This document shows positions 41,480 to 51,763 of a stretch of DNA of 64,000 nt, piece by piece; position 1 is the stretch's first letter, and every line of letters begins with the position of its first letter. This stretch comes from Candidatus Multivoradales bacterium. GTDB lineage: Bacteria > Acidobacteriota > Thermoanaerobaculia > Multivoradales > JAHEKO01. The notes below the pieces were generated by a model. The model was given only the letters and a program-made list of their open reading frames with translations, did not search any database and was not told the origin of the DNA. Where the stretch lies: assembly GCA_965223155.1 (NCBI GenBank), contig CBDCVR010000013.1, positions 256,001-320,000 of the forward strand. Direction: 5' to 3'. The position numbers and the translations under genes are program-made.

Positions 41480-41556
41480 CGGGACGTGGCGCAGTCTGGT
41501 AGCGTACCTGAATGGGGTTCAGGGGGTCGCGAGTTCAAATCTCGCCGTCCCGACCA
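41480..41556 (+). tRNA. tRNA-Pro(GGG)
   Basis: CGGGACG/CGTCCCG acceptor stem, CCTGA-ATGGGGT-TCAGG anticodon arm, GTTCAA, encoded CCA. Confidence 0.97.
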
Positions 41557-41619
41557 TAACTTCCCTGGCTTCAATAACTTGCAGTGGCCCTAGAATGGGC
41601 CAGATGCGGCCCTTCGATA

Positions 41620-41639
41620 TGGGGCACTGGGTGGGGCAC
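41620..41639. repeat. direct repeat TGGGGCAC x2 (arm-site-like)
   Basis: 41620-41627 and 41632-41639, about 65 bp after the tRNA 3' end. Confidence 0.5.
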
Positions 41640-41949
41640 AAAGCGCCCAGTTTCCGCCCGGTTTACTAGGTATTATCGAGCCGATGGCCCGAGTAGTTCG
41701 AAGCGCAGCGGCTGGACGGGCCGAAGAGTCACGGTGCGCGTTGACCACCTGACCGTTGTTCGCGCTGCCACTCCGTCGTCTACCCGCAGCGGCATAGCAG
41801 CCAGACACGTGAGCCAAGAACCCGCAGATGACGAAACCCCACGAGAGGTAGGTGCCAGATGAGATGAGTCGGTCGGTCTCCAGCTGGGACACTGTGCCAG
41901 TTGGAGATAACCAAGGAATCGGCATCAGAGCCGAGAAAGGAGACCGACC

Positions 41950-42963
41950 ATGGAGTATGTTGGCATTGATGTTCACTCGAAGTACAGCGAGGTTTGCGGG
42001 ATATCGGAAGAGGGGGAAGTGACGCTTCGCCGGCGGATTCCGACTACGGAGACAGCCTTGCGCCGGTTCTTCGGTTGTCGTGAGCAGTCGCAGGTGACGC
42101 TCGAAAGCGGCCCGGTGACTCCTTGGGTGTACCGGTTGCTGTGTGAGCTGGGACACGAGGTGACGGTAGTCAACCCGCGGCGGGTGCGGCTGATCGCGGA
42201 GTCGACATTGAAGACCGACGGAATCGACGCCGAGGTGTTGGCTCGATTGAGCCGGTTGGATCTCGACCTCCTGCGTCCCGTGTACCAGCGTACGCGTGAG
42301 GCCCAGGAGCTTCGGGCCAGGCTTCGCGTACGTACGAGCCTGGTCAAAGCCAGGACATCGTTGATCAACGCGGTGCGTGGAACGTTGCGAGCTCAAGGGT
42401 ACCGAGTGCCATCGTGCCCGGCCAAGAGCTTCGTCGTGCGCTACGCATCGATGGGTCTCGACAGTTCTCTTGCGGAAACGATCGATCCTCTGGTGACGAC
42501 GATCGGCGAGTTGACGGATCGGATCAACCGGCTCGAGAAGGAGCTCGTAGCCGAGTCGAGCTCAAACGAGCTGTTGGTGCGGCTTCAGACGGTCCCTGGG
42601 GTGGGCCCCTTGGTGAGCTTGGCCTTCCTGGGTTGGATGGATCGCCCGGATCGGTTCAGAAAGAGTCGAGACGTGGGTGCGTGTTTGGGCTTGAGACCGT
42701 CGCTTCGAAGCTCAGGAGGACACGAGATCCGAGGCCGGATCACACGGGAGGGCGACGCCGAGATGCGAAGGCTTCTGGTTCAAGCGGCTCATGCGGCGTT
42801 GAACTGTCGCAAAGAGTCGTCGCTCAAGAACTGGGCTGAGAGCTTGGTCGAGAGGCTCGGCAAGGGCAAGGCCGTCGTGGCCCTAGCGAGGAAGATCGCA
42901 GTGTTGCTCCATCGGCTATGGGTAACGGGCGATACTTTCCGGGCGTTCCCCCAGGCGGTGTAG
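41950..42963 (+). CDS. IS110-family DEDD transposase/recombinase
   Basis: GIDVHS, LESG, KTDGIDA (DEDD), VPGVG, GLRP...SSGG Ser motif, ALARK. Confidence 0.96.
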   Translation: MEYVGIDVHSKYSEVCGISEEGEVTLRRRIPTTETALRRFFGCREQSQVTLESGPVTPWVYRLLCELGHEVTVVNPRRVRLIAESTLKTDGIDAEVLARLSRLDLDLLRPVYQRTREAQELRARLRVRTSLVKARTSLINAVRGTLRAQGYRVPSCPAKSFVVRYASMGLDSSLAETIDPLVTTIGELTDRINRLEKELVAESSSNELLVRLQTVPGVGPLVSLAFLGWMDRPDRFRKSRDVGACLGLRPSLRSSGGHEIRGRITREGDAEMRRLLVQAAHAALNCRKESSLKNWAESLVERLGKGKAVVALARKIAVLLHRLWVTGDTFRAFPQAV

Positions 42964-43009
42964 AGCCTAGAGAACATCAGGTCGCACCAGAAAGGAAGGA
43001 CGGATTGAA

Positions 43010-43148
43010 AGTTTCGATGACTCCGAGAAAAGGGTTGGAGGCCAGGACTCCGCGTGCCAGATGGGAGCATCGAATCCTCAACGGACGAAAAACTCACCAT
43101 GCACCGGTCCAAGAAAGGACCCGCCAGAGTGCGAATAGAAGCTCGTCC
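43010..43148 (+). ncRNA. predicted bridge/seek RNA of IS variant 1
   Basis: Two stem-internal loop-hairpin units; guides GAAAAGGGTT (43027-36), GTGCCAG (43054-60), ATAGAAG (43135-41); boundaries approximate. Confidence 0.75.
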
Positions 43149-43286
43149 TGAGGCTCCATCCGAGACCCGAAACACATGGGGAGACGATGACAGACACCTT
43201 GACCGAAACGACCGACTCATAGAAGCCTTTCCGCGAAAGCTAGTCAGTAGTTGACGTTTTCGAAAAGGGTGGTGCCTATTCTTGGG

Positions 43287-43326
43287 GGCACAGTGTCCCA
43301 GCTGGAGACCGACCGACCCATCTCAT
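43287..43326 (-). mobile_element. truncated left end of another IS110 copy
   Basis: 40 nt with 1 mismatch to the IS left end; outer flank TAGGTTCCAG resembles the variant 1 target. Confidence 0.85.
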
Positions 43327-43352
43327 CTGGAACCTATCGATGGGAGGTCAGG

Positions 43353-43658
43353 TCAGGAGGAACCCATAATAGAGCTAAGTACCTCTAAGAGAAGGCACGA
43401 AAAGGCTGCCATCAGGAAGATAGACAGTGCGCAGTACAAGACCGACAGGACTGCTAACCAAGGGTCGCCCAACCGAAGTGGTCTGAAGCTGTACATGTAG
43501 CGCCAGAACCGGACGGTCTGCTGGGACGTCATAAAGTTTGAAGGCTTGCCCGCTCGTTGCCACTCATCTTCGTGATATTTCCGAAGTCGCCGCAACAAGG
43601 CCACCCCCACAAACATGGCTGGAAGCATCGCCGCGAAGAAGGCTATCTCAAGGCTCAT
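43353..43658 (-). CDS. small two-TM membrane protein (UspB-like layout)
   Basis: TM-LRRLRKYHEDEW...FWRYMY...-TM; lower GC. Confidence 0.65.
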   Translation of the reverse strand: MSLEIAFFAAMLPAMFVGVALLRRLRKYHEDEWQRAGKPSNFMTSQQTVRFWRYMYSFRPLRLGDPWLAVLSVLYCALSIFLMAAFSCLLLEVLSSIMGSS

Positions 43659-43685
43659 AGAGGTGGCCCCCCTTGTTCGGACAGT

Positions 43686-45056
43686 GAGTTATCGTCAAAT
43701 GTTGTGTACGGGTGACTCAGGCGGCGATCCGGTTCTTGGGTTCTCCATCAACGAATTTGACACCTCGGACAACGTCGGCGATTCGCTTGTAGCCCTGTAG
43801 CCGCCGCCATCGTTTCTCGGCACTCTGGCTCAGCTTGAAGACCATCGAGAGCATGGTCTCGCGGGAGAGACAACCACGGGTCTTGGCCGTTCGAAGGCGT
43901 ACGGTGGCAAAGGTCGACTCGATCGGGTTCGTGGTCCTGAGATGGACCCAATGCTCGGCCGGGAAATCGTAGAAGGTCAGCAGGACCTTGCGATCCTTGG
44001 CCAGGCAACGCGTCGCCTTCGGGTACTTGGCCCCGTAGGTCGACAGGAAGGCATCGAAGGCTCGCTCGGCAGCCTCGCGCGTTTCGGCCATCCAGACCTG
44101 GTGCAGCGCCTGCTTGGCCTTTGGCTGGACGGCCTTGGGCATCTTGTTCAAGACGTTGCCGGTCTTGTGGACCCAGCAACGCTGGGTCTTGGTGTTGCTC
44201 CAGACCTGAGCCAGGGCCTTCCAGAAGCCCAGAGCGCCGTCACCGGTCGCCAGCTTCGGCTCGATGGCAAGCCCTCGCGCTTCGAGTCCACGCAAGAGCT
44301 CGAGCCAGGAAGCCTCGCTCTCGCGGTAGCCGTCTTCGACGGCGATGAGCTCCTTGGTGCCGTCCTCGGTGGCGCCAATCAGTACCAGCAGGCACAGCTT
44401 CGCGTCGTCCAGACGAGCCTTGGTATGGATCCCATCCGCCCACACGTAGACGTAGCGCTTGGAGGACAAGTCCCGGGTGCGCCAGTCGGTGTACTCCTTG
44501 GCCCAGACTTTCTTCAGACGGCTGATCGTCGCGGCTGACAACCCCGGGGCGTCGGGGCCTACCAGAGCTTCCAGGGCATCGGAGAAATCTCCGGTGGAGA
44601 TGCCGCGCAGATAGAGCCACGGCAGCAGCTCCTCGACGCTCTTGGCCCGTCTGAGATACGGAGGCGCGATCTTCGAGCGAAAGACCAACTCACCTTCACG
44701 ATCCCGAACCCGAGGCACCTTCACCGGCACACCTCCGATTCCCGTCTGGATCTCACGCTCGCGCAGGTAGCCGTTGCGAACCATGCGGCGCCGGCCATCT
44801 TCCGTTTGCTCGCCTCGGTACTCGGCCAGGAAGCTCTCGACCTCGGCTTCGATCGCTTCGCGAAGCAACTCGCGTGAGCCGCGGCGAAGCACTTCGGTCA
44901 AGGCATCTCTCGAACTCTCTGATCGGTCAATCGAAACTACGTTACTCTTGCTCAAGGCGTATCCTCCTTCTTTGAGGGTTTGAATCCGATTTGGAAAACC
45001 GGACTCAGGATACGCCGCCTTCATCTCAACTCATACACAACTTTCGACCATAGCTC
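43686..45056 (-). mobile_element. IS256-family element
   Basis: 28-bp imperfect terminal IRs (22/28), 9-bp TSD TCGGACAGT (43677-85, 45057-65). Confidence 0.95.
43717..44955 (-). CDS. IS256-family transposase
   Basis: RNGY, VPRVRDR, YVWADG, GDGALGF, QRCWVHK, RTTNPIES; TTG start with GGAGG RBS. Confidence 0.95.
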   Translation of the reverse strand: MSKSNVVSIDRSESSRDALTEVLRRGSRELLREAIEAEVESFLAEYRGEQTEDGRRRMVRNGYLREREIQTGIGGVPVKVPRVRDREGELVFRSKIAPPYLRRAKSVEELLPWLYLRGISTGDFSDALEALVGPDAPGLSAATISRLKKVWAKEYTDWRTRDLSSKRYVYVWADGIHTKARLDDAKLCLLVLIGATEDGTKELIAVEDGYRESEASWLELLRGLEARGLAIEPKLATGDGALGFWKALAQVWSNTKTQRCWVHKTGNVLNKMPKAVQPKAKQALHQVWMAETREAAERAFDAFLSTYGAKYPKATRCLAKDRKVLLTFYDFPAEHWVHLRTTNPIESTFATVRLRTAKTRGCLSRETMLSMVFKLSQSAEKRWRRLQGYKRIADVVRGVKFVDGEPKNRIAA

Positions 45057-45088
45057 TCGGACAGTTCGGCGGCAGTGAATTCGGAGTG

Positions 45089-45169
45089 AATTCGGTGACA
45101 GGATACATATTTCGAGTGTCCCTCTGCGGCCGGATTCTTCCCTTGAAATTGGTATCCTGTCACCGAATT
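45089..45169. repeat. palindromic repeat family A, copy 1 (intact, 81 bp)
   Basis: Perfect 18-bp IR AATTCGGTGACAGGATAC / GTATCCTGTCACCGAATT around a conserved 45-bp spacer. Confidence 0.92.
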
Positions 45170-45179
45170 TCCCCCCAGC

Positions 45180-45524
45180 GTGGAATCCGATGGATTGCAC
45201 ACTCTCGTAGTGCCGTCGCGGGAGCGGAGCAGCGGTCAGCCTCAGGTCGACTTCTCAGTCGAGTATCCGCCCTGGGACGGGAGCCTTGACGACTCCAGAC
45301 TAGCGCCGCCCCCGGGCGTAAGCGGTGGCGGGATCTGGACGGTCCCTATATTCAAAGCGAACCGCCTGTGGGCTCCAGAACGCGCGGAGTTGGTCGGAGT
45401 GGCGAGGAGCTGGTCGCGGCAGAACAAGGAGCTCGTCTGCGTGCGTATAGAGGAGTGGCTCGCGATCCTTCGGCAAGACGTCGGCGATCTAGCGCCCGCT
45501 ATTGACGCGGCGGCTGGCCAGTAG
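45180..45524 (+). pseudogene. C-terminal fragment of a trypsin-like serine protease
   Basis: PGVSGGGIW...ELVGVA...CVRIEEWL resembles the catalytic-Ser half; begins right after repeat A. Confidence 0.5.
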
Positions 45525-45529
45525 CTATC

Positions 45530-46249
45530 TCAGTCCGCGCAGTTGTTGTACCGGAGCGTGTTCGCCTTCCACTCGTCGCGAGCGCTGCACCCGGCAACGT
45601 ACTCCTCAAGAAGGACGCGACACCGCGCTGGCGAGGGCGCGTGAAGGCCTGCCAACGTTGCGATCTCCCCGATCATCTCGTCCTGCGAATGGACCCAGTC
45701 AACTGCTAGAACGTCGGCTTTGGTCTCGACGTCAACGGCTGCTGGCAGGTCGGACCGGAGCGATGAATCGACAACCAAGAGAGCTCCGCGCGGGCGCTTT
45801 TGGCTGAGCTTGTAGGAGTTGATCAACGCACTGCCCATAACCGGGAAGATCGTCATCAGGCCTTCGCCCATCCTGATCACACCATCCGTCGACTTCGCCA
45901 TGACCGAATCGGGGTAGCAGCCCTGTACATCCGCGAAGCCACCCGTCGACAGAGCTGCTCTCGCAACGCCTCCACCGGCGAGAACGTGCCGAAGTACGCC
46001 GATCGCAACGGCGACGGGTTTCCCCAGCGCCTGTTCGCCAAAGCTCGGAACGACTACGAAGCCATCGCCAAGCTGGTGGGCAAACAGGCGATGCGGCTCC
46101 TCCGCGAGGCACATCGCGCCAATGCGGTGAATCGCCTCCATTAGTCGACCAAGGCGCACTAGAGCCTCAGCCTGGTGCATGGCGTACGTATCAGAGAACC
46201 CCTCGAGATCGAGATAGAGGGACCACTTGTCTTCGCCAGTCCGCCACAT
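45530..46249 (-). CDS. divergent class III nucleotide cyclase-like protein
   Basis: LYLDLEGFS, QLGDGFVVV, RAALSTG, VMGSALINSYKL; ATG 46249 (the longer ORF runs into the IS). Confidence 0.6.
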   Translation of the reverse strand: MWRTGEDKWSLYLDLEGFSDTYAMHQAEALVRLGRLMEAIHRIGAMCLAEEPHRLFAHQLGDGFVVVPSFGEQALGKPVAVAIGVLRHVLAGGGVARAALSTGGFADVQGCYPDSVMAKSTDGVIRMGEGLMTIFPVMGSALINSYKLSQKRPRGALLVVDSSLRSDLPAAVDVETKADVLAVDWVHSQDEMIGEIATLAGLHAPSPARCRVLLEEYVAGCSARDEWKANTLRYNNCAD

Positions 46250-46373
46250 TGAGGTCAACGGTTGCTGTGGAATTCGGTGACAGATGAGATGAGTCGGTCG
46301 GTCTCCAGCTGGGACACTGTGCCAGTTGGAGATAACCAAGAATCGGCATCAGAGCCGAGAAAGGAGACCGACC

Positions 46374-47387
46374 ATGGAGTATCTTGGCATCGATGTTCAC
46401 TCGAAGTACAGCGAGGTGTGTGGCGTATCAGAAGACGGTGAGGTGACGGTTCGCCGGCGGGTTCCGACGACCGAGACGGGCCTGCGAAGGTTCTTCGCCA
46501 ATCGGGAACGCTCGCAGGTGACGCTCGAGAGCGGTCCGGTCACACCCTGGGTCTATCGACTGCTGTCTGAGCTCGGCCATGAGGTGATGGTGGTCAATCC
46601 ACGCCGGGTACGTCTGATCGCGGAATCGACCCTGAAGACGGACGGAATCGACGCCGAGATCCTGGCTCGTTTGAGCCGGTTGGATCTGGGTTTGCTTCGA
46701 CCAGTCTACCAGCGCACAGGTGAGGCCCAAGAGCTTCGGACGCGTCTTCGGGTCCGAACGAGTCTGGTGAAGACCAGGACCTCGCTGATCAACTCCGTAC
46801 GCGGAACGCTGCGGGCACAGGGCTACCGAGTGCCCTCATGTCCGGCGAAGAGCTTCGTGGCTCGGTACGCGTCGATGTCGGTCGAAGCCGGCCTGTTGGG
46901 AGCGCTCGAACCTCTGGTAACGACAATCGGCGAGCTGACCGATCGGATCCACCATCTCGAAGACGACCTCATCTCCGAGTCGAGATCAAACGAGCTGGTC
47001 CGTCGGCTGCAGACGGTTCCTGGTGTGGGGCCTCTGGTGAGCCTTGCGTTCGTCGGCTGGATGGATCGTCCGGATCGGTTCGAGAAAAGCCGCGACGTCG
47101 GAGCGTGTCTGGGCTTGAGACCGTCGCTTCGCAGCTCAGGAGGGCATGAGGTCAGGGGCCGGATCACTCGCGAGGGCGACTCGGAGATGCGCAGACTCTT
47201 GGTGCAGGCAGCTCATGCGGCGTTGAACTGTCGCAAAGAGTCGTCACTCAAGAGATGGGCTGAGGGCCTGGTCGAGAGGCTGGGTAAGGGCAAGGCCGTG
47301 GTCGCGCTAGCTAGGAAGATCGCGGTGTTGCTCCACAGGCTGTGGGTGACAGGTGAGAGCTTCCGAGCCTTTCCCAAGGCAGCGTAG
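46374..47387 (+). CDS. IS110-family DEDD transposase/recombinase
   Basis: Same motifs as variant 1; about 86% aa identity by manual count; AGGAG RBS. Confidence 0.96.
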   Translation: MEYLGIDVHSKYSEVCGVSEDGEVTVRRRVPTTETGLRRFFANRERSQVTLESGPVTPWVYRLLSELGHEVMVVNPRRVRLIAESTLKTDGIDAEILARLSRLDLGLLRPVYQRTGEAQELRTRLRVRTSLVKTRTSLINSVRGTLRAQGYRVPSCPAKSFVARYASMSVEAGLLGALEPLVTTIGELTDRIHHLEDDLISESRSNELVRRLQTVPGVGPLVSLAFVGWMDRPDRFEKSRDVGACLGLRPSLRSSGGHEVRGRITREGDSEMRRLLVQAAHAALNCRKESSLKRWAEGLVERLGKGKAVVALARKIAVLLHRLWVTGESFRAFPKAA

Positions 47388-47429
47388 AAGAGATAACTAG
47401 ACGACCAACAAGCAAGGACGGATTGAGAG

Positions 47430-47566
47430 GTTCGATGACTCCGAAAGTATCCTTGGTGGCCCCGACACCGTGTGACAGATGGGAGCATCGATTCCTAAAC
47501 GGACGCAAAACTCACCATGCACCGGTTCAAAGAAGAACCCTACAGAGTGCGAATAGAAGCTCGTCC
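47430..47566 (+). ncRNA. predicted bridge/seek RNA of IS variant 2
   Basis: Guides GTATCCT (47447-53), GTGACAG (47472-78), ATAGAAG (47553-59); compensatory stem changes vs variant 1. Confidence 0.8.
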
Positions 47567-47665
47567 CAAGCCTCGATCCAAACCTAAGGAAAACTACAAA
47601 AAGAAGAAACGAAACTCTTGACGCCAACCGACCGACTCATAGAAGGATACATATTTCCTGACGGT

Positions 47666-47746
47666 TCCGGTGACAGGATACATATTTCGAGGGTCCCTCT
47701 GCGGCCGGATTCTTCCCTTGAAATAGGTATCCTGTCACCGGATTTC
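47666..47746. repeat. palindromic repeat family A, copy 2 (preceded by an extra IS-occupied arm)
   Basis: 16-bp IR TCCGGTGACAGGATAC / GTATCCTGTCACCGGA, same spacer as copy 1. Confidence 0.92.
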
Positions 47747-47771
47747 CAGTGGAATTCCGGCTCGGCTCGCG

Positions 47772-49064
47772 TCACCTGATACCGGGGATTCGTACCGCGG
47801 GGATGATCTCGTCGAGCAGGATCTGCTCCGGCATCCAGAAAAAGTCCGGGTCGTTGTACCCGCCGCACAGGATCACGACGAGGAGGTCGAGTGCGGGAAT
47901 GACGTAGATGCGCTGGCCACCATTCCCGGCGGCGGTATGGACCTCCAGCTCGGCGGAGTCCGTGCCGTAAAGATCGTGCCACCAGAGGTATCCGTAGCCG
48001 AATTCGCCGATCTCTTTCTCGCGTCCGGTCACGGCAAGACGCCGCCGCGTCGATTCGCTCACCCAGGATTCGGTCAGGATCTGCTCGCCGTTCCAGCGCC
48101 CGCCGCTGAGATACAGCGAGCCGAACTTTGCGAAGTCTCGCGCTGTCATCCAGACGTTTCCGCCGGGGTCCGAGTTTGTCGCCCAGGGCCGATCGCTCTC
48201 CCACGCGAGCTCGGGCACGGAGTCCCAGTTCGAATAGCTGGCCCATTCGACGTCTCGTATTCCCAGCGGTTCAAAGAGCAGTTCTCGGGCGTAGGCGCCG
48301 AAGGCCTTGTTCGTAGCACGTGCCACCGCGATACCCAGCATCGCGGGCAACCCGGAGTTGTAGTACCACTGCGTACCGGGAGTCGAGGCCATCGAGCGGC
48401 TGAACACGTAGGCTGCCGGGTCGTCGTGCGCAGTCGTTCGCTCTGCGTCGTTCGAAGGGTCGGTGTACGGCACCTCGAACTCGTTCCAGCGGAGCCCGGC
48501 ACTCATCATCAACGCGTGGCGGACGGTGATTGCACGTTTCTCCGGCGTAGCCAGCGAATCTAGTTCCGGGAAGTAGTCGAGCAGCGGGGTGTCGAGCGAC
48601 GGGATCGCTTGGCGATCGAGCGCGATTCCAACGACTGCCGAAGTGATGCTCTTCCCCACGGAGCGCGAGTCGTGCAGCGTGGTCCGGTCGAACTCGACGG
48701 TCACGGTCTCAAAACGCTCTCCATTCCAGCGCTTGTCTTCTCCCGTGAAATACGATTCGTACACGAGTTGGCCGCTCTTGGCGATCAGCACCGCATGGAC
48801 GTTCGGGTACCGCTCGCCCTGGCGCAGCGCTGCGGTCATGGAGTCGAGGCGTGAAACGTCGAGTCCCGCGTCGGACGCGGCACCAACGCCCCATCCATCG
48901 TCGGTCCTGGCAGGCGTCCAGGCGGCCTCGGGCGACGCCGCGGTCGGAGTGGGTGCCGAATTCTCGGTCGTTCCACAGCCCTGGGATGCCAGCAGACAGA
49001 GTGCAACCGCAGTTACCGTCCAGTGTCGGGGTGTCACCGTCGCAAGACGTCTTGCAGCTCTCAT
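47772..49064 (-). CDS. serine hydrolase, beta-lactamase/AmpC-like family lipoprotein
   Basis: Lipobox SQGC, SVGK (SxxK), YYNS, YGYLWW, AAGNGGQ. Confidence 0.9.
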   Translation of the reverse strand: MRAARRLATVTPRHWTVTAVALCLLASQGCGTTENSAPTPTAASPEAAWTPARTDDGWGVGAASDAGLDVSRLDSMTAALRQGERYPNVHAVLIAKSGQLVYESYFTGEDKRWNGERFETVTVEFDRTTLHDSRSVGKSITSAVVGIALDRQAIPSLDTPLLDYFPELDSLATPEKRAITVRHALMMSAGLRWNEFEVPYTDPSNDAERTTAHDDPAAYVFSRSMASTPGTQWYYNSGLPAMLGIAVARATNKAFGAYARELLFEPLGIRDVEWASYSNWDSVPELAWESDRPWATNSDPGGNVWMTARDFAKFGSLYLSGGRWNGEQILTESWVSESTRRRLAVTGREKEIGEFGYGYLWWHDLYGTDSAELEVHTAAGNGGQRIYVIPALDLLVVILCGGYNDPDFFWMPEQILLDEIIPAVRIPGIR

Positions 49065-50221: not shown

Positions 50222-50387
50222 GACTCCTCCTGGTTTTGTCCGCCGGCCATCGTATCCCAGCGCACCCCCAGCCCCCTCCGAGATTCCTACCCTGGGTGAA
50301 TTCGGTGACAGGATACGTGAATTCGGTGACAGGATACATATTTCGAGTGTCCCCCTGCGGCCGGATTCTTCCCTTGAAATAGGTATC

Positions 50388-51750
50388 CTTCTATGAGTCG
50401 GTCGGTTGGCGTCAAGAGTTTCGTTTCTTCTTTTTGTAGTTTTCCTTAGGTTTTGGATCGAGGCTTGGGACGAGCTTCTATTCGCACTCTGTAGGGTTCT
50501 TCTTTGAACCGGTGCATGGTGAGTTTTGCGTCCGTTTAGGAATCGATGCTCCCATCTGTCACACGGTGTCGGGGCCACCAAGGATACTTTCGGAGTCATC
50601 GAACCTCTCAATCCGTCCTTGCTTGTTGGTCGTCTAGTTATCTCTTCTACGCTGCCTTGGGAAAGGCTCGGAAGCTCTCACCTGTCACCCACAGCCTGTG
50701 GAGCAACACCGCGATCTTCCTAGCTAGCGCGACCACGGCCTTGCCCTTACCCAGCCTCTCGACCAGGCCCTCAGCCCATCTCTTGAGTGACGACTCTTTG
50801 CGACAGTTCAACGCCGCATGAGCTGCCTGCACCAAGAGTCTGCGCATCTCCGAGTCGCCCTCGCGAGTGATCCGGCCCCTGACCTCATGCCCTCCTGAGC
50901 TGCGAAGCGACGGTCTCAAGCCCAGACACGCTCCGACGTCGCGGCTTTTCTCGAACCGATCCGGACGATCCATCCAGCCGACGAACGCAAGGCTCACCAG
51001 AGGCCCCACACCAGGAACCGTCTGCAGCCGACGGACCAGCTCGTTTGATCTCGACTCGGAGATGAGGTCGTCTTCGAGATGGTGGATCCGATCGGTCAGC
51101 TCGCCGATTGTCGTTACCAGAGGTTCGAGCGCTCCCAACAGGCCGGCTTCGACCGACATCGACGCGTACCGAGCCACGAAGCTCTTCGCCGGACATGAGG
51201 GCACTCGGTAGCCCTGTGCCCGCAGCGTTCCGCGTACGGAGTTGATCAGCGAGGTCCTGGTCTTCACCAGACTCGTTCGGACCCGAAGACGCGTCCGAAG
51301 CTCTTGGGCCTCACCTGTGCGCTGGTAGACTGGTCGAAGCAAACCCAGATCCAACCGGCTCAAACGAGCCAGGATCTCGGCGTCGATTCCGTCCGTCTTC
51401 AGGGTCGATTCCGCGATCAGACGTACCCGGCGTGGATTGACCACCATCACCTCATGGCCGAGCTCAGACAGCAGTCGATAGACCCAGGGTGTGACCGGAC
51501 CGCTCTCGAGCGTCACCTGCGAGCGTTCCCGATTGGCGAAGAACCTTCGCAGGCCCGTCTCGGTCGTCGGAACCCGCCGGCGAACCGTCACCTCACCGTC
51601 TTCTGATACGCCACACACCTCGCTGTACTTCGAGTGAACATCGATGCCAAGATACTCCATGGTCGGTCTCCTTTCTCGGCTCTGATGCCGATTCTTGGTT
51701 ATCTCCAACTGGCACAGTGTCCCAGCTGGAGACCGACCGACTCATCTCAT
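50388..51750 (-). mobile_element. IS110-family (IS1111 group) element, variant 2, copy b
   Basis: Near-identical reverse complement of 46284-47645 (one extra base in an A run); same target on the opposite strand. Confidence 0.95.
50647..51660 (-). CDS. IS110-family DEDD transposase/recombinase
   Basis: Protein identical to 46374-47387. Confidence 0.96.
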   Translation of the reverse strand: MEYLGIDVHSKYSEVCGVSEDGEVTVRRRVPTTETGLRRFFANRERSQVTLESGPVTPWVYRLLSELGHEVMVVNPRRVRLIAESTLKTDGIDAEILARLSRLDLGLLRPVYQRTGEAQELRTRLRVRTSLVKTRTSLINSVRGTLRAQGYRVPSCPAKSFVARYASMSVEAGLLGALEPLVTTIGELTDRIHHLEDDLISESRSNELVRRLQTVPGVGPLVSLAFVGWMDRPDRFEKSRDVGACLGLRPSLRSSGGHEVRGRITREGDSEMRRLLVQAAHAALNCRKESSLKRWAEGLVERLGKGKAVVALARKIAVLLHRLWVTGESFRAFPKAA

Positions 51751-51763
51751 CTGTCACCGGATT

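Follow-up and report, generated by a model that had tools for sequence, protein, structure and literature searches.

The non-coding region 3′ of the transposase gene of an IS1111-type insertion sequence (IS), present in the window analysed here (the whole stretch of DNA, 64,000 nt), is predicted to encode a bridge (seek) RNA with two internal loops, of which the first (unit 1) would read the target and the second (unit 2) the element's own ends as they are joined in the excised circle. This reading, to which a probability of about 0.8 is assigned, is supported by the covariation of both guide strands of unit 2 with the differing element ends of relatives, in agreement with the donor-loop function that the original prediction had proposed. 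In the model, the RNA would be produced and bound by the transposase, and its pairing with the DNA would be needed for recombination. Unit 2 would recognise the 10 bp between the circle-junction repeats (AGA-AG-ATGAG within ...CTCAT-AGA-AG-ATGAG-ATGAG...), with the two donor-loop pairings overlapping at the core as in IS621 and the strand order reversed as in IS1111 seekRNAs. Strand exchange at the AG core would follow, carried out by two transposase dimers that the two loops hold in place, and the circle would be inserted into GGTGAC^AG-GATAC (variant B) or GGTKCC^AS-CCTTT (variant A). These steps are deduced from the anatomy, from the sequence matches, and from the covariation, all of which were observed as described below.

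Table 1. Features of the IS copies in the window, with positions counted from the first base of the window.
Feature	Position	Strand	Basis and details
IS copy, variant A (IS1111 type)	41857..43223	+	Boundaries from 16 genomic copies and their flanks, 7-bp/3-bp extension convention
Left extension AGATGAG (core AG + ATGAG), variant A	41857..41863	+	Flanks of genomic copies
Left sub-terminal inverted repeat ATGAGTCGGTCGGT, variant A	41864..41877	+	Repeat comparison
Transposase, IS110-family RNA-guided (DEDD) type, 337 aa	41950..42963	+	Pfam, NCBIfam, motif in translation
Unit 1, putative target-binding loop	43013..43074	+	Comparison with flanks
Unit 2, putative donor-binding loop	43083..43148	+	Outer stem GGACG 43083-87/CGTCC 43144-48; inner stem GCAC 43101-04/GTGC 43129-32; apical hairpin 43106-10/43117-21
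5′ guide strand of unit 2, AAAAACTCACCAT	43088..43100	+	Covariation with left extensions of relatives
3′ guide strand of unit 2, GAATAGAAGCT	43133..43143	+	Covariation with right ends of relatives
TTGACC, candidate −35 of a circle-junction promoter	43199..43204	+	17 nt to GAAGAT
Right sub-terminal inverted repeat (43207-20), right extension AGA (43221-23), and core AG (43224-25), variant A	43207..43225	+	Repeat and boundary comparison
Core AG common to IS copy A and target	43224-25	+	Boundary comparison
IS copy, variant B	46282..47643	+	Transposase 46374-47387; unit 2 47501-47566; TTGACG 47618-23; right repeat 47627-40
Second variant-B IS copy	50390..51752	-	Unit 2 at 50468-50533

Three full copies of the IS were found within the window, representing two variants (A and B) that are 81% identical, and the genome contains in total two A copies, 14 full B copies, one interrupted B copy, and one solo left end of 50 nt. 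The ends of the element were set from the flanks of the 16 full genomic copies, independently of the loops. All 14 B copies read GGTGAC-AG/ATGAG... on the left and ...CATAGA-AG/GAT on the right, with GGTGAC-AG and AG-GAT(A/G)C as flanks, and the uninterrupted empty site GGTGACAGGATAC occurs six times in the window (0.03 expected by chance). Comparison of this empty site with the filled one (GGTGAC-AGATGAG...AGA-AGGATAC) revealed only AG on both sides, as in site-specific insertion without added target duplication. The element starts with AGATGAG followed by ATGAGTCGGTCGGT and ends with ACCGACCGACTCAT followed by AGA. Its sub-terminal inverted repeats of 14 bp, which are perfect in variant B and identical at 13 of 14 positions in variant A, have the length of IS1111 repeats (about 11–13 bp or more), and the extensions beyond them (7 bp on the left, 3 bp on the right) obey the rule described for the IS1111 group in PMC11187229. 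The layout is that of IS1111 elements as well, with 260 nt of non-coding DNA 3′ of the stop codon (42964–43223) vs. 93 nt upstream of the gene (41857–41949) in variant A. When joined, the ends read ...CTCATAGA-AG-ATGAGATGAG, which bears out the junction ATAGA-AG-ATGAG that had been proposed originally, and in the predicted circle junction the right end ...CTCATAGA would be directly joined to AGATGAGATGAG. This junction sequence was not present in the genome assembly. Logan contigs of four runs from one study contained many IS/flank junctions and no joint of a right with a left end; contigs drop rare forms, and their search is therefore uninformative on circles.

The variant A transposase matched the Pfam families PF01548 (DEDD_Tnp_IS110) and PF02371 (Transposase_20), and the NCBIfam model NF033542 (“IS110 family RNA-guided transposase”) gave 244.8 bits for variant A and 241.1 bits for variant B at a cut-off of 140. 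With 337 amino acids and the sequence GLRPSLRSSG, the translation has the size (330–350 aa) and the GL-P----S(t)G motif of IS1111 transposases (PMC11187229). A sequence match to the IS621 transposase was obtained in the C-terminal part only (E 2.5e-10).

Several further features were observed around the IS copies. A solo 50-nt copy (43287–43336, minus strand), located in inverted orientation 61 nt past the right end of copy A, shares 96% identity with the initial 50 nt of variant A, left flank included (TAGGTTCC-AGATGAG...), and may be the remnant of another copy or a footprint. The insertion site of variant B is supplied by REP-like palindromic repeats (GGTGACAGGATACATATTTCGAG ... inverted copy), which were found at 45089–45169, 47666–47742, and 50304–50337; one of these was mis-scored by Rfam as a plant microRNA (27.8 bits vs. 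a gathering score of 128). Among the relatives of the element, tandem repeats of the left target (AAAAGGTGCC) occur upstream of the left end at two loci (L056 and L026), and at the former the full copy is preceded by a partial left end (GGTGCCAGATGGGATGAG); these features may be traces of repeated insertion and excision. At another locus (L028, genome G019), one of the four copies in the genome loses similarity in unit 2 right after GGAAAAC, where it is interrupted by other DNA. A gene for a Mutator-family (IS256-like) transposase (43717–45024, minus strand, 435 aa, PF00872, E 1.8e-65) is situated between copies A and B. The 3′ end of a gene coding for a protein of 430 aa with a beta-lactamase fold (47772–49064, minus strand, PF00144), a family that also takes in esterases and penicillin-binding proteins, lies about 130 nt past the right end of variant B. 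A tRNA-Pro (GGG) gene (41480–41556, plus strand) is located 300 nt upstream of copy A, and a tmRNA-like Rfam match at 41500–41556 turned out to be this tRNA.

In unit 1, the 5′ strand (43025–43035) is antisense to the right target, and the 3′ strand (43052–43062) is sense to the left target followed by AG and AT. Unit 1 of variant A and unit 1 of variant B each match the flanks of their own copies, as expected of the target loop of a bridge or seek RNA, and the hairpin of unit 1 differs between the variants by a compensatory change (GGAG/CUCC in A, GGUG/CACC in B). The two variants have the same donor loop, different target loops, and different insertion sites; this is a case of natural retargeting within one genome. 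Two observations concern the junctions. The 5′ strand of the variant A target loop ends with GT, which is antisense to AC and not to the AG found at 43224–25, and the right junction has AC instead of AG in four of seven A-type insertions of the clade (counted were the A copies, L026, L029, L034, L037, and L040; the AC observation is indexed to L033, L026, L034, and L040), the left junction always being AG. Target and donor cores may differ in their second base. Furthermore, in 49 of 58 rows the target-loop 3′ strand extends past the core into the left end of the element (AT, often ATG or ATGG); this run-on would fit a handshake guide as named for IS621, with bases that hardly vary and show no covariation.

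Unit 2 consists of an outer stem GGACG/CGTCC and an inner stem GCAC/GTGC that is capped by a GGTCC/GGACC hairpin, and all coordinates given in the original prediction were confirmed. The 3′ guide strand contains ATAGAAG (43135–41, and identically 47553–59 in variant B), which is made up of AT from the end of the right repeat, AGA of the extension, and AG of the core; it is, as had been noted, an exact match of the right end and core, and it tracks the right ends across relatives. The 5′ guide strand contains CTCA (43093–96, and identically 47511–14 in variant B), which is antisense to TGAG at positions 7–4 of the left extension, and C 43098 pairs with the core G (position 2). A CTCA match of 4 nt is weak and unconvincing when taken alone. 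The pairing of CTCA with TGAG that the original prediction had described stands, but not its restriction to only 4 nt: in the register derived from the relatives, the guide covers six positions, five of which pair in the window element, leaving one internal mismatch, at left-extension position 3; the first core base likewise has no pairing partner. The antisense guide comes first in both loops, likewise as predicted, and this is the order reported for IS1111-type seekRNAs in PMC11187229. Between variants A and B, 59 of the 66 positions of unit 2 are identical, and all seven differences fall outside the guide strands (positions −12 to −1 before GCAC and +1 to +11 after GTGC), two of them representing a compensatory change from C/G to T/A in the apical hairpin. 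This invariance of the guide strands is uninformative on its own because the ends of A and B are identical.

The motif ATAGAAG occurs eight times in the window, with six of these occurrences within the three IS copies, and it was counted 172 times in the genome (4.0 Mb, both strands), about 34 of these within IS copies; by arithmetic from the genome counts, about 0.005 occurrences would be expected by chance in the 262-nt non-coding region. Modular alternative ends exist in ISPpu9 (PMC12288879), and the internal ATAGAAG might by analogy be a pseudo-end, i.e., an alternative right end acting at the DNA level and not as an RNA guide. This explanation is barely credible, as no inverted-repeat sequence precedes the internal motif, none of the 16 full genomic copies ends there, and the antisense 5′ strand would be left unexplained.

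Among 56 distinct sequences of unit 2, 48 have an apical hairpin of 5 bp or more, and 41 different arm pairs occur; the G·U pairs of this hairpin, which would be A·C on the opposite strand, argue for a transcript in the sense of the transposase gene. Of the 56 distinct sequences, 35 showed the inner stem in minimum free energy folds and 48 an outer stem of 3 bp or more. The inner helix GCAC/GTGC and its neighbours are invariant in all 54 aligned distinct sequences, and this stem is without covariation support because it never varies. Single-sequence folding of the whole non-coding region performed no better than shuffles (z −0.93 and −0.74), and RNAalifold, applied to 17 whole RNAs whose 5′ halves were misaligned by MAFFT, returned only the invariant inner stem. 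Rfam contained no family matching 42964–43225 or 47388–47645 at E up to 1, and a scan of 41500–48000 gave no relevant family. A minus-strand open reading frame (42789–43220) was rejected as coding, as it had no Pfam match and contained A/B indels of 4, 2, and 2 nt.

Relatives of the element were gathered by genome searches at the family, class, and phylum level, by searches of further regions, and by a metagenome pattern scan with the conserved helix motif. In the latter, three of 80 fetched loci had a transposase relative, and the other 77 were dropped as probable chance matches; a single-protein search of genome contigs yielded five distant relatives only (25–54% identity in the best segment), which were not used. 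Element ends were parsed from the conserved cores of the inverted repeats and the loop from the invariant GCAC...AGTGCG helix. A loop was obtained for 65 of 84 loci, the 19 loci without a parse having mostly ≤40% identity or being cut by contig ends. L107, which comes from an unpublished genome, was left out throughout and L098 as a false parse, and L084 and L108 were left out of the 5′ strand counts (left-end anchor off by one base).

On the 3′ side, positions +3 to +9 after GTGC correspond to the final 2 nt of the right repeat followed by the right extension (3 nt) and the core (2 nt). Sixty loci gave 14 distinct right-end/loop combinations, in which 90 of 98 positions were identical, compared to a shuffle mean of 79.9 (sd 2.1), and none of 20000 shuffles reached the observed identity. 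The right extension AGA is accompanied by ATAGAAG in the loop and GGA by ATGGAAG, and the deviating cores CG (L060) and AA (L112) are copied in the loop 3′ strand. On the 5′ side, the guide at positions −8 to −3 before GCAC runs antisense to left-extension positions 7 to 2. Here, 58 loci gave 30 distinct combinations, with pairing at 134 of 180 positions (shuffle mean 113.2, sd 3.1), and again no shuffle out of 20000 reached the observed value. Compensatory combinations of left end and loop comprise GATAAGG with CCTTA (L110/L126), TGATTGT with CCAAG (L063), GATGGG with CCCATC, which form six contiguous pairs (L054, L081), GATGAG with CTCATC (L170), and AGATAAA with TTA (L131), and A at left-extension position 6 is found together with T at loop position −7 in the clade of the window element and again in a distant clade (L074/L080/L090/L092/L091). 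Since TGAG occurs twice at the left end of the window element, the register of the 5′ guide is ambiguous there. Relatives with the left extension TGGG settle this ambiguity: their loop reads CCCA although the inverted repeat still begins with ATGAG, and the loop thus reads the extension and not the repeat.

Exceptions to the matching were found at the left end (L094, L103/L125), in the right extension (L061, L126), and in the core (L063/L064, L102). In addition, of ten loci with A at left-extension position 7, six also have A at loop position −8, as does L131; this non-Watson–Crick association spans several clades. The relatives share ancestry, each variable position changing just two to nine times on the transposase tree (63 rows). 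Independent-pair tests on this tree rested on one to six pairs per position, which is too few, and none reached p 0.05; summed over the five Watson–Crick or identity tests, about 9.6 co-changes were concordant and about 1.0 discordant. The second loop matches both donor strands and covaries with them, as expected of a bridge or seek RNA, with phylogeny-corrected tests being underpowered.

Recognition of the ends by unit 2 could serve more than one step. One rather improbable alternative to the reading of the circle is that unit 2 acts mainly at excision, with each guide strand reading one end of the integrated element while the target loop reads the flanks; recognition of the circle at insertion would then depend more on binding of the sub-terminal repeats by the transposase. 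Such a division of labour would agree with the requirement of IS1111 elements for correct target flanks in circle formation (PMC11187229), with the binding of IS621 excision substrates across both loops (PMC13626964), with IS621 excision driven by donor-arm recognition alone (preprint 10.64898/2026.08.31.748434), and with the 5′ guide register, which stays adjacent to the inverted repeat even with a longer extension, as in L110. The experiments on ISEc11 bear on both sides. An 82-nt seekRNA containing target matches only sufficed for transposition of a mini-IS (PMC11187229), according to which the second loop may be dispensable, and this result has been counted in favour of a role in excision; however, the short RNA without the second part still gave excision as well as insertion. 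The same pairings would also fit the circle junction, and the two steps are not told apart by sequence alone.

Reading of the circle ends by unit 2 may also be imperfect by design. It is conceivable, albeit doubtful, that the second loop of IS1111 elements is a genuine donor guide under selection, that its register is determined by the sub-terminal repeats and not by the core, and that its left half is deliberately kept imperfect, as in the window element and many relatives, which have mismatches at left-extension position 3 and at the first core base. If this is true, the asymmetric grip on the donor could set the balance between excision and insertion, and an imperfect donor guide would reconcile the donor loops predicted by Durrant et al. 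(2024) with the target-only sufficiency reported by Siddiquee et al. (2024).

The TTGACC of variant A and the TTGACG of variant B are located just inside the right repeat. Of 55 distinct right-end/left-end combinations, 53 have TTGAC at a distance of 25 or 26 nt from the IS end. Owing to this fixed distance, joining of the ends would put the hexamer GAAGAT 17 or 18 nt downstream; it agrees with the −10 consensus at three of six positions, including A at position 2 and T at position 6. In the linear element, no sigma-70-like site was found by the prediction criteria used. According to the Pjunc scheme for circles of the IS110/IS1111 type, the −35 element is in the right end and the −10 element is completed by the left end (PMC12288879). 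A junction promoter in the present element, which the original prediction had raised as a weaker idea, would fit this scheme; the conservation of TTGAC favours it, and it is supported more weakly than the donor loop. The candidate −35 in the right end would correspond to that of the Pjunc of the ISEc11 type, and the candidate −10 GAAGAT would differ in matching 3/6 of the consensus.

A promoter of this kind also figures in an explanation that would make unit 2 a mere scaffold for transposase binding or RNA processing, the likeness to the ends being a by-product, for example of a junction promoter that keeps GAAGAT constant. The invariance of the GCAC/GTGC helix and its neighbours (54/54) is what would be expected of an element recognised by a protein, several end positions hardly vary, and ISEc11 works without the corresponding RNA part (PMC11187229). 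A promoter constraint on the DNA ends would nevertheless leave unexplained why loop bases 80–1200 nt away change together with them, and this explanation is considered highly improbable. A donor guide that reads the circle ends thus remains the preferred interpretation of unit 2.

The smallest RNA-programmable recombinases known to date have bridge or seek RNAs as their guide component. Apart from the putative donor loop and the retargeting, the element is an ordinary insertion sequence, and this loop belongs to an already described kind of RNA-guided transposition (Durrant et al., 2024; Siddiquee et al., 2024). A literature search retrieved predictions of IS1111-type donor loops and no experimental test of one. 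The element and its relatives offer a clean example of a simple loop in which both donor guide strands are readable and change with the ends, which makes a compensatory-mutation test easy to design.

In IS621, one RNA with two internal loops reads target and donor (Durrant et al., 2024, PMC11208160; Hiraizumi et al., 2024), one side of each loop pairing with the bottom strand and the opposite side with the top strand, and both pairings including the core dinucleotide (PMC11208160). The RNA proposed here resembles this system in all these respects, and also in its imperfect donor guide, that of IS621 being the right one, which pairs discontiguously (PMC11208160), and in the short sub-terminal repeats that flank the donor. 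It differs from the IS621 RNA as described there by its location 3′ of the transposase gene, the antisense strand coming first in each loop, a core that is AG on the strand as written, and sub-terminal repeats of 14 bp. With the seekRNAs of ISEc11, ISPa11, ISKpn4, and ISPst6 (Siddiquee et al., 2024, PMC11187229), it shares the downstream non-coding region, sub-terminal repeats that carry 7-bp and 3-bp extensions, the top-strand match that precedes the bottom-strand match, the transposase of 330–350 aa with the GL-P----S(t)G motif, and natural retargeting between close relatives. Compared by description, the longer RNA in that account is given no donor-matching role, whereas the second loop of the present element covaries with the ends. 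The layout also resembles that of bridge RNAs predicted by Durrant et al. (2024, PMC11208160) for the right end of IS1111 elements (ISCARN28, ISAzs32, ISPa11), with loops complementary to target, donor, and core; in many of the IS1111 orthologues described there the donor-binding bases are placed in a multi-loop, whereas here they are found in a simple internal loop capped by a hairpin.
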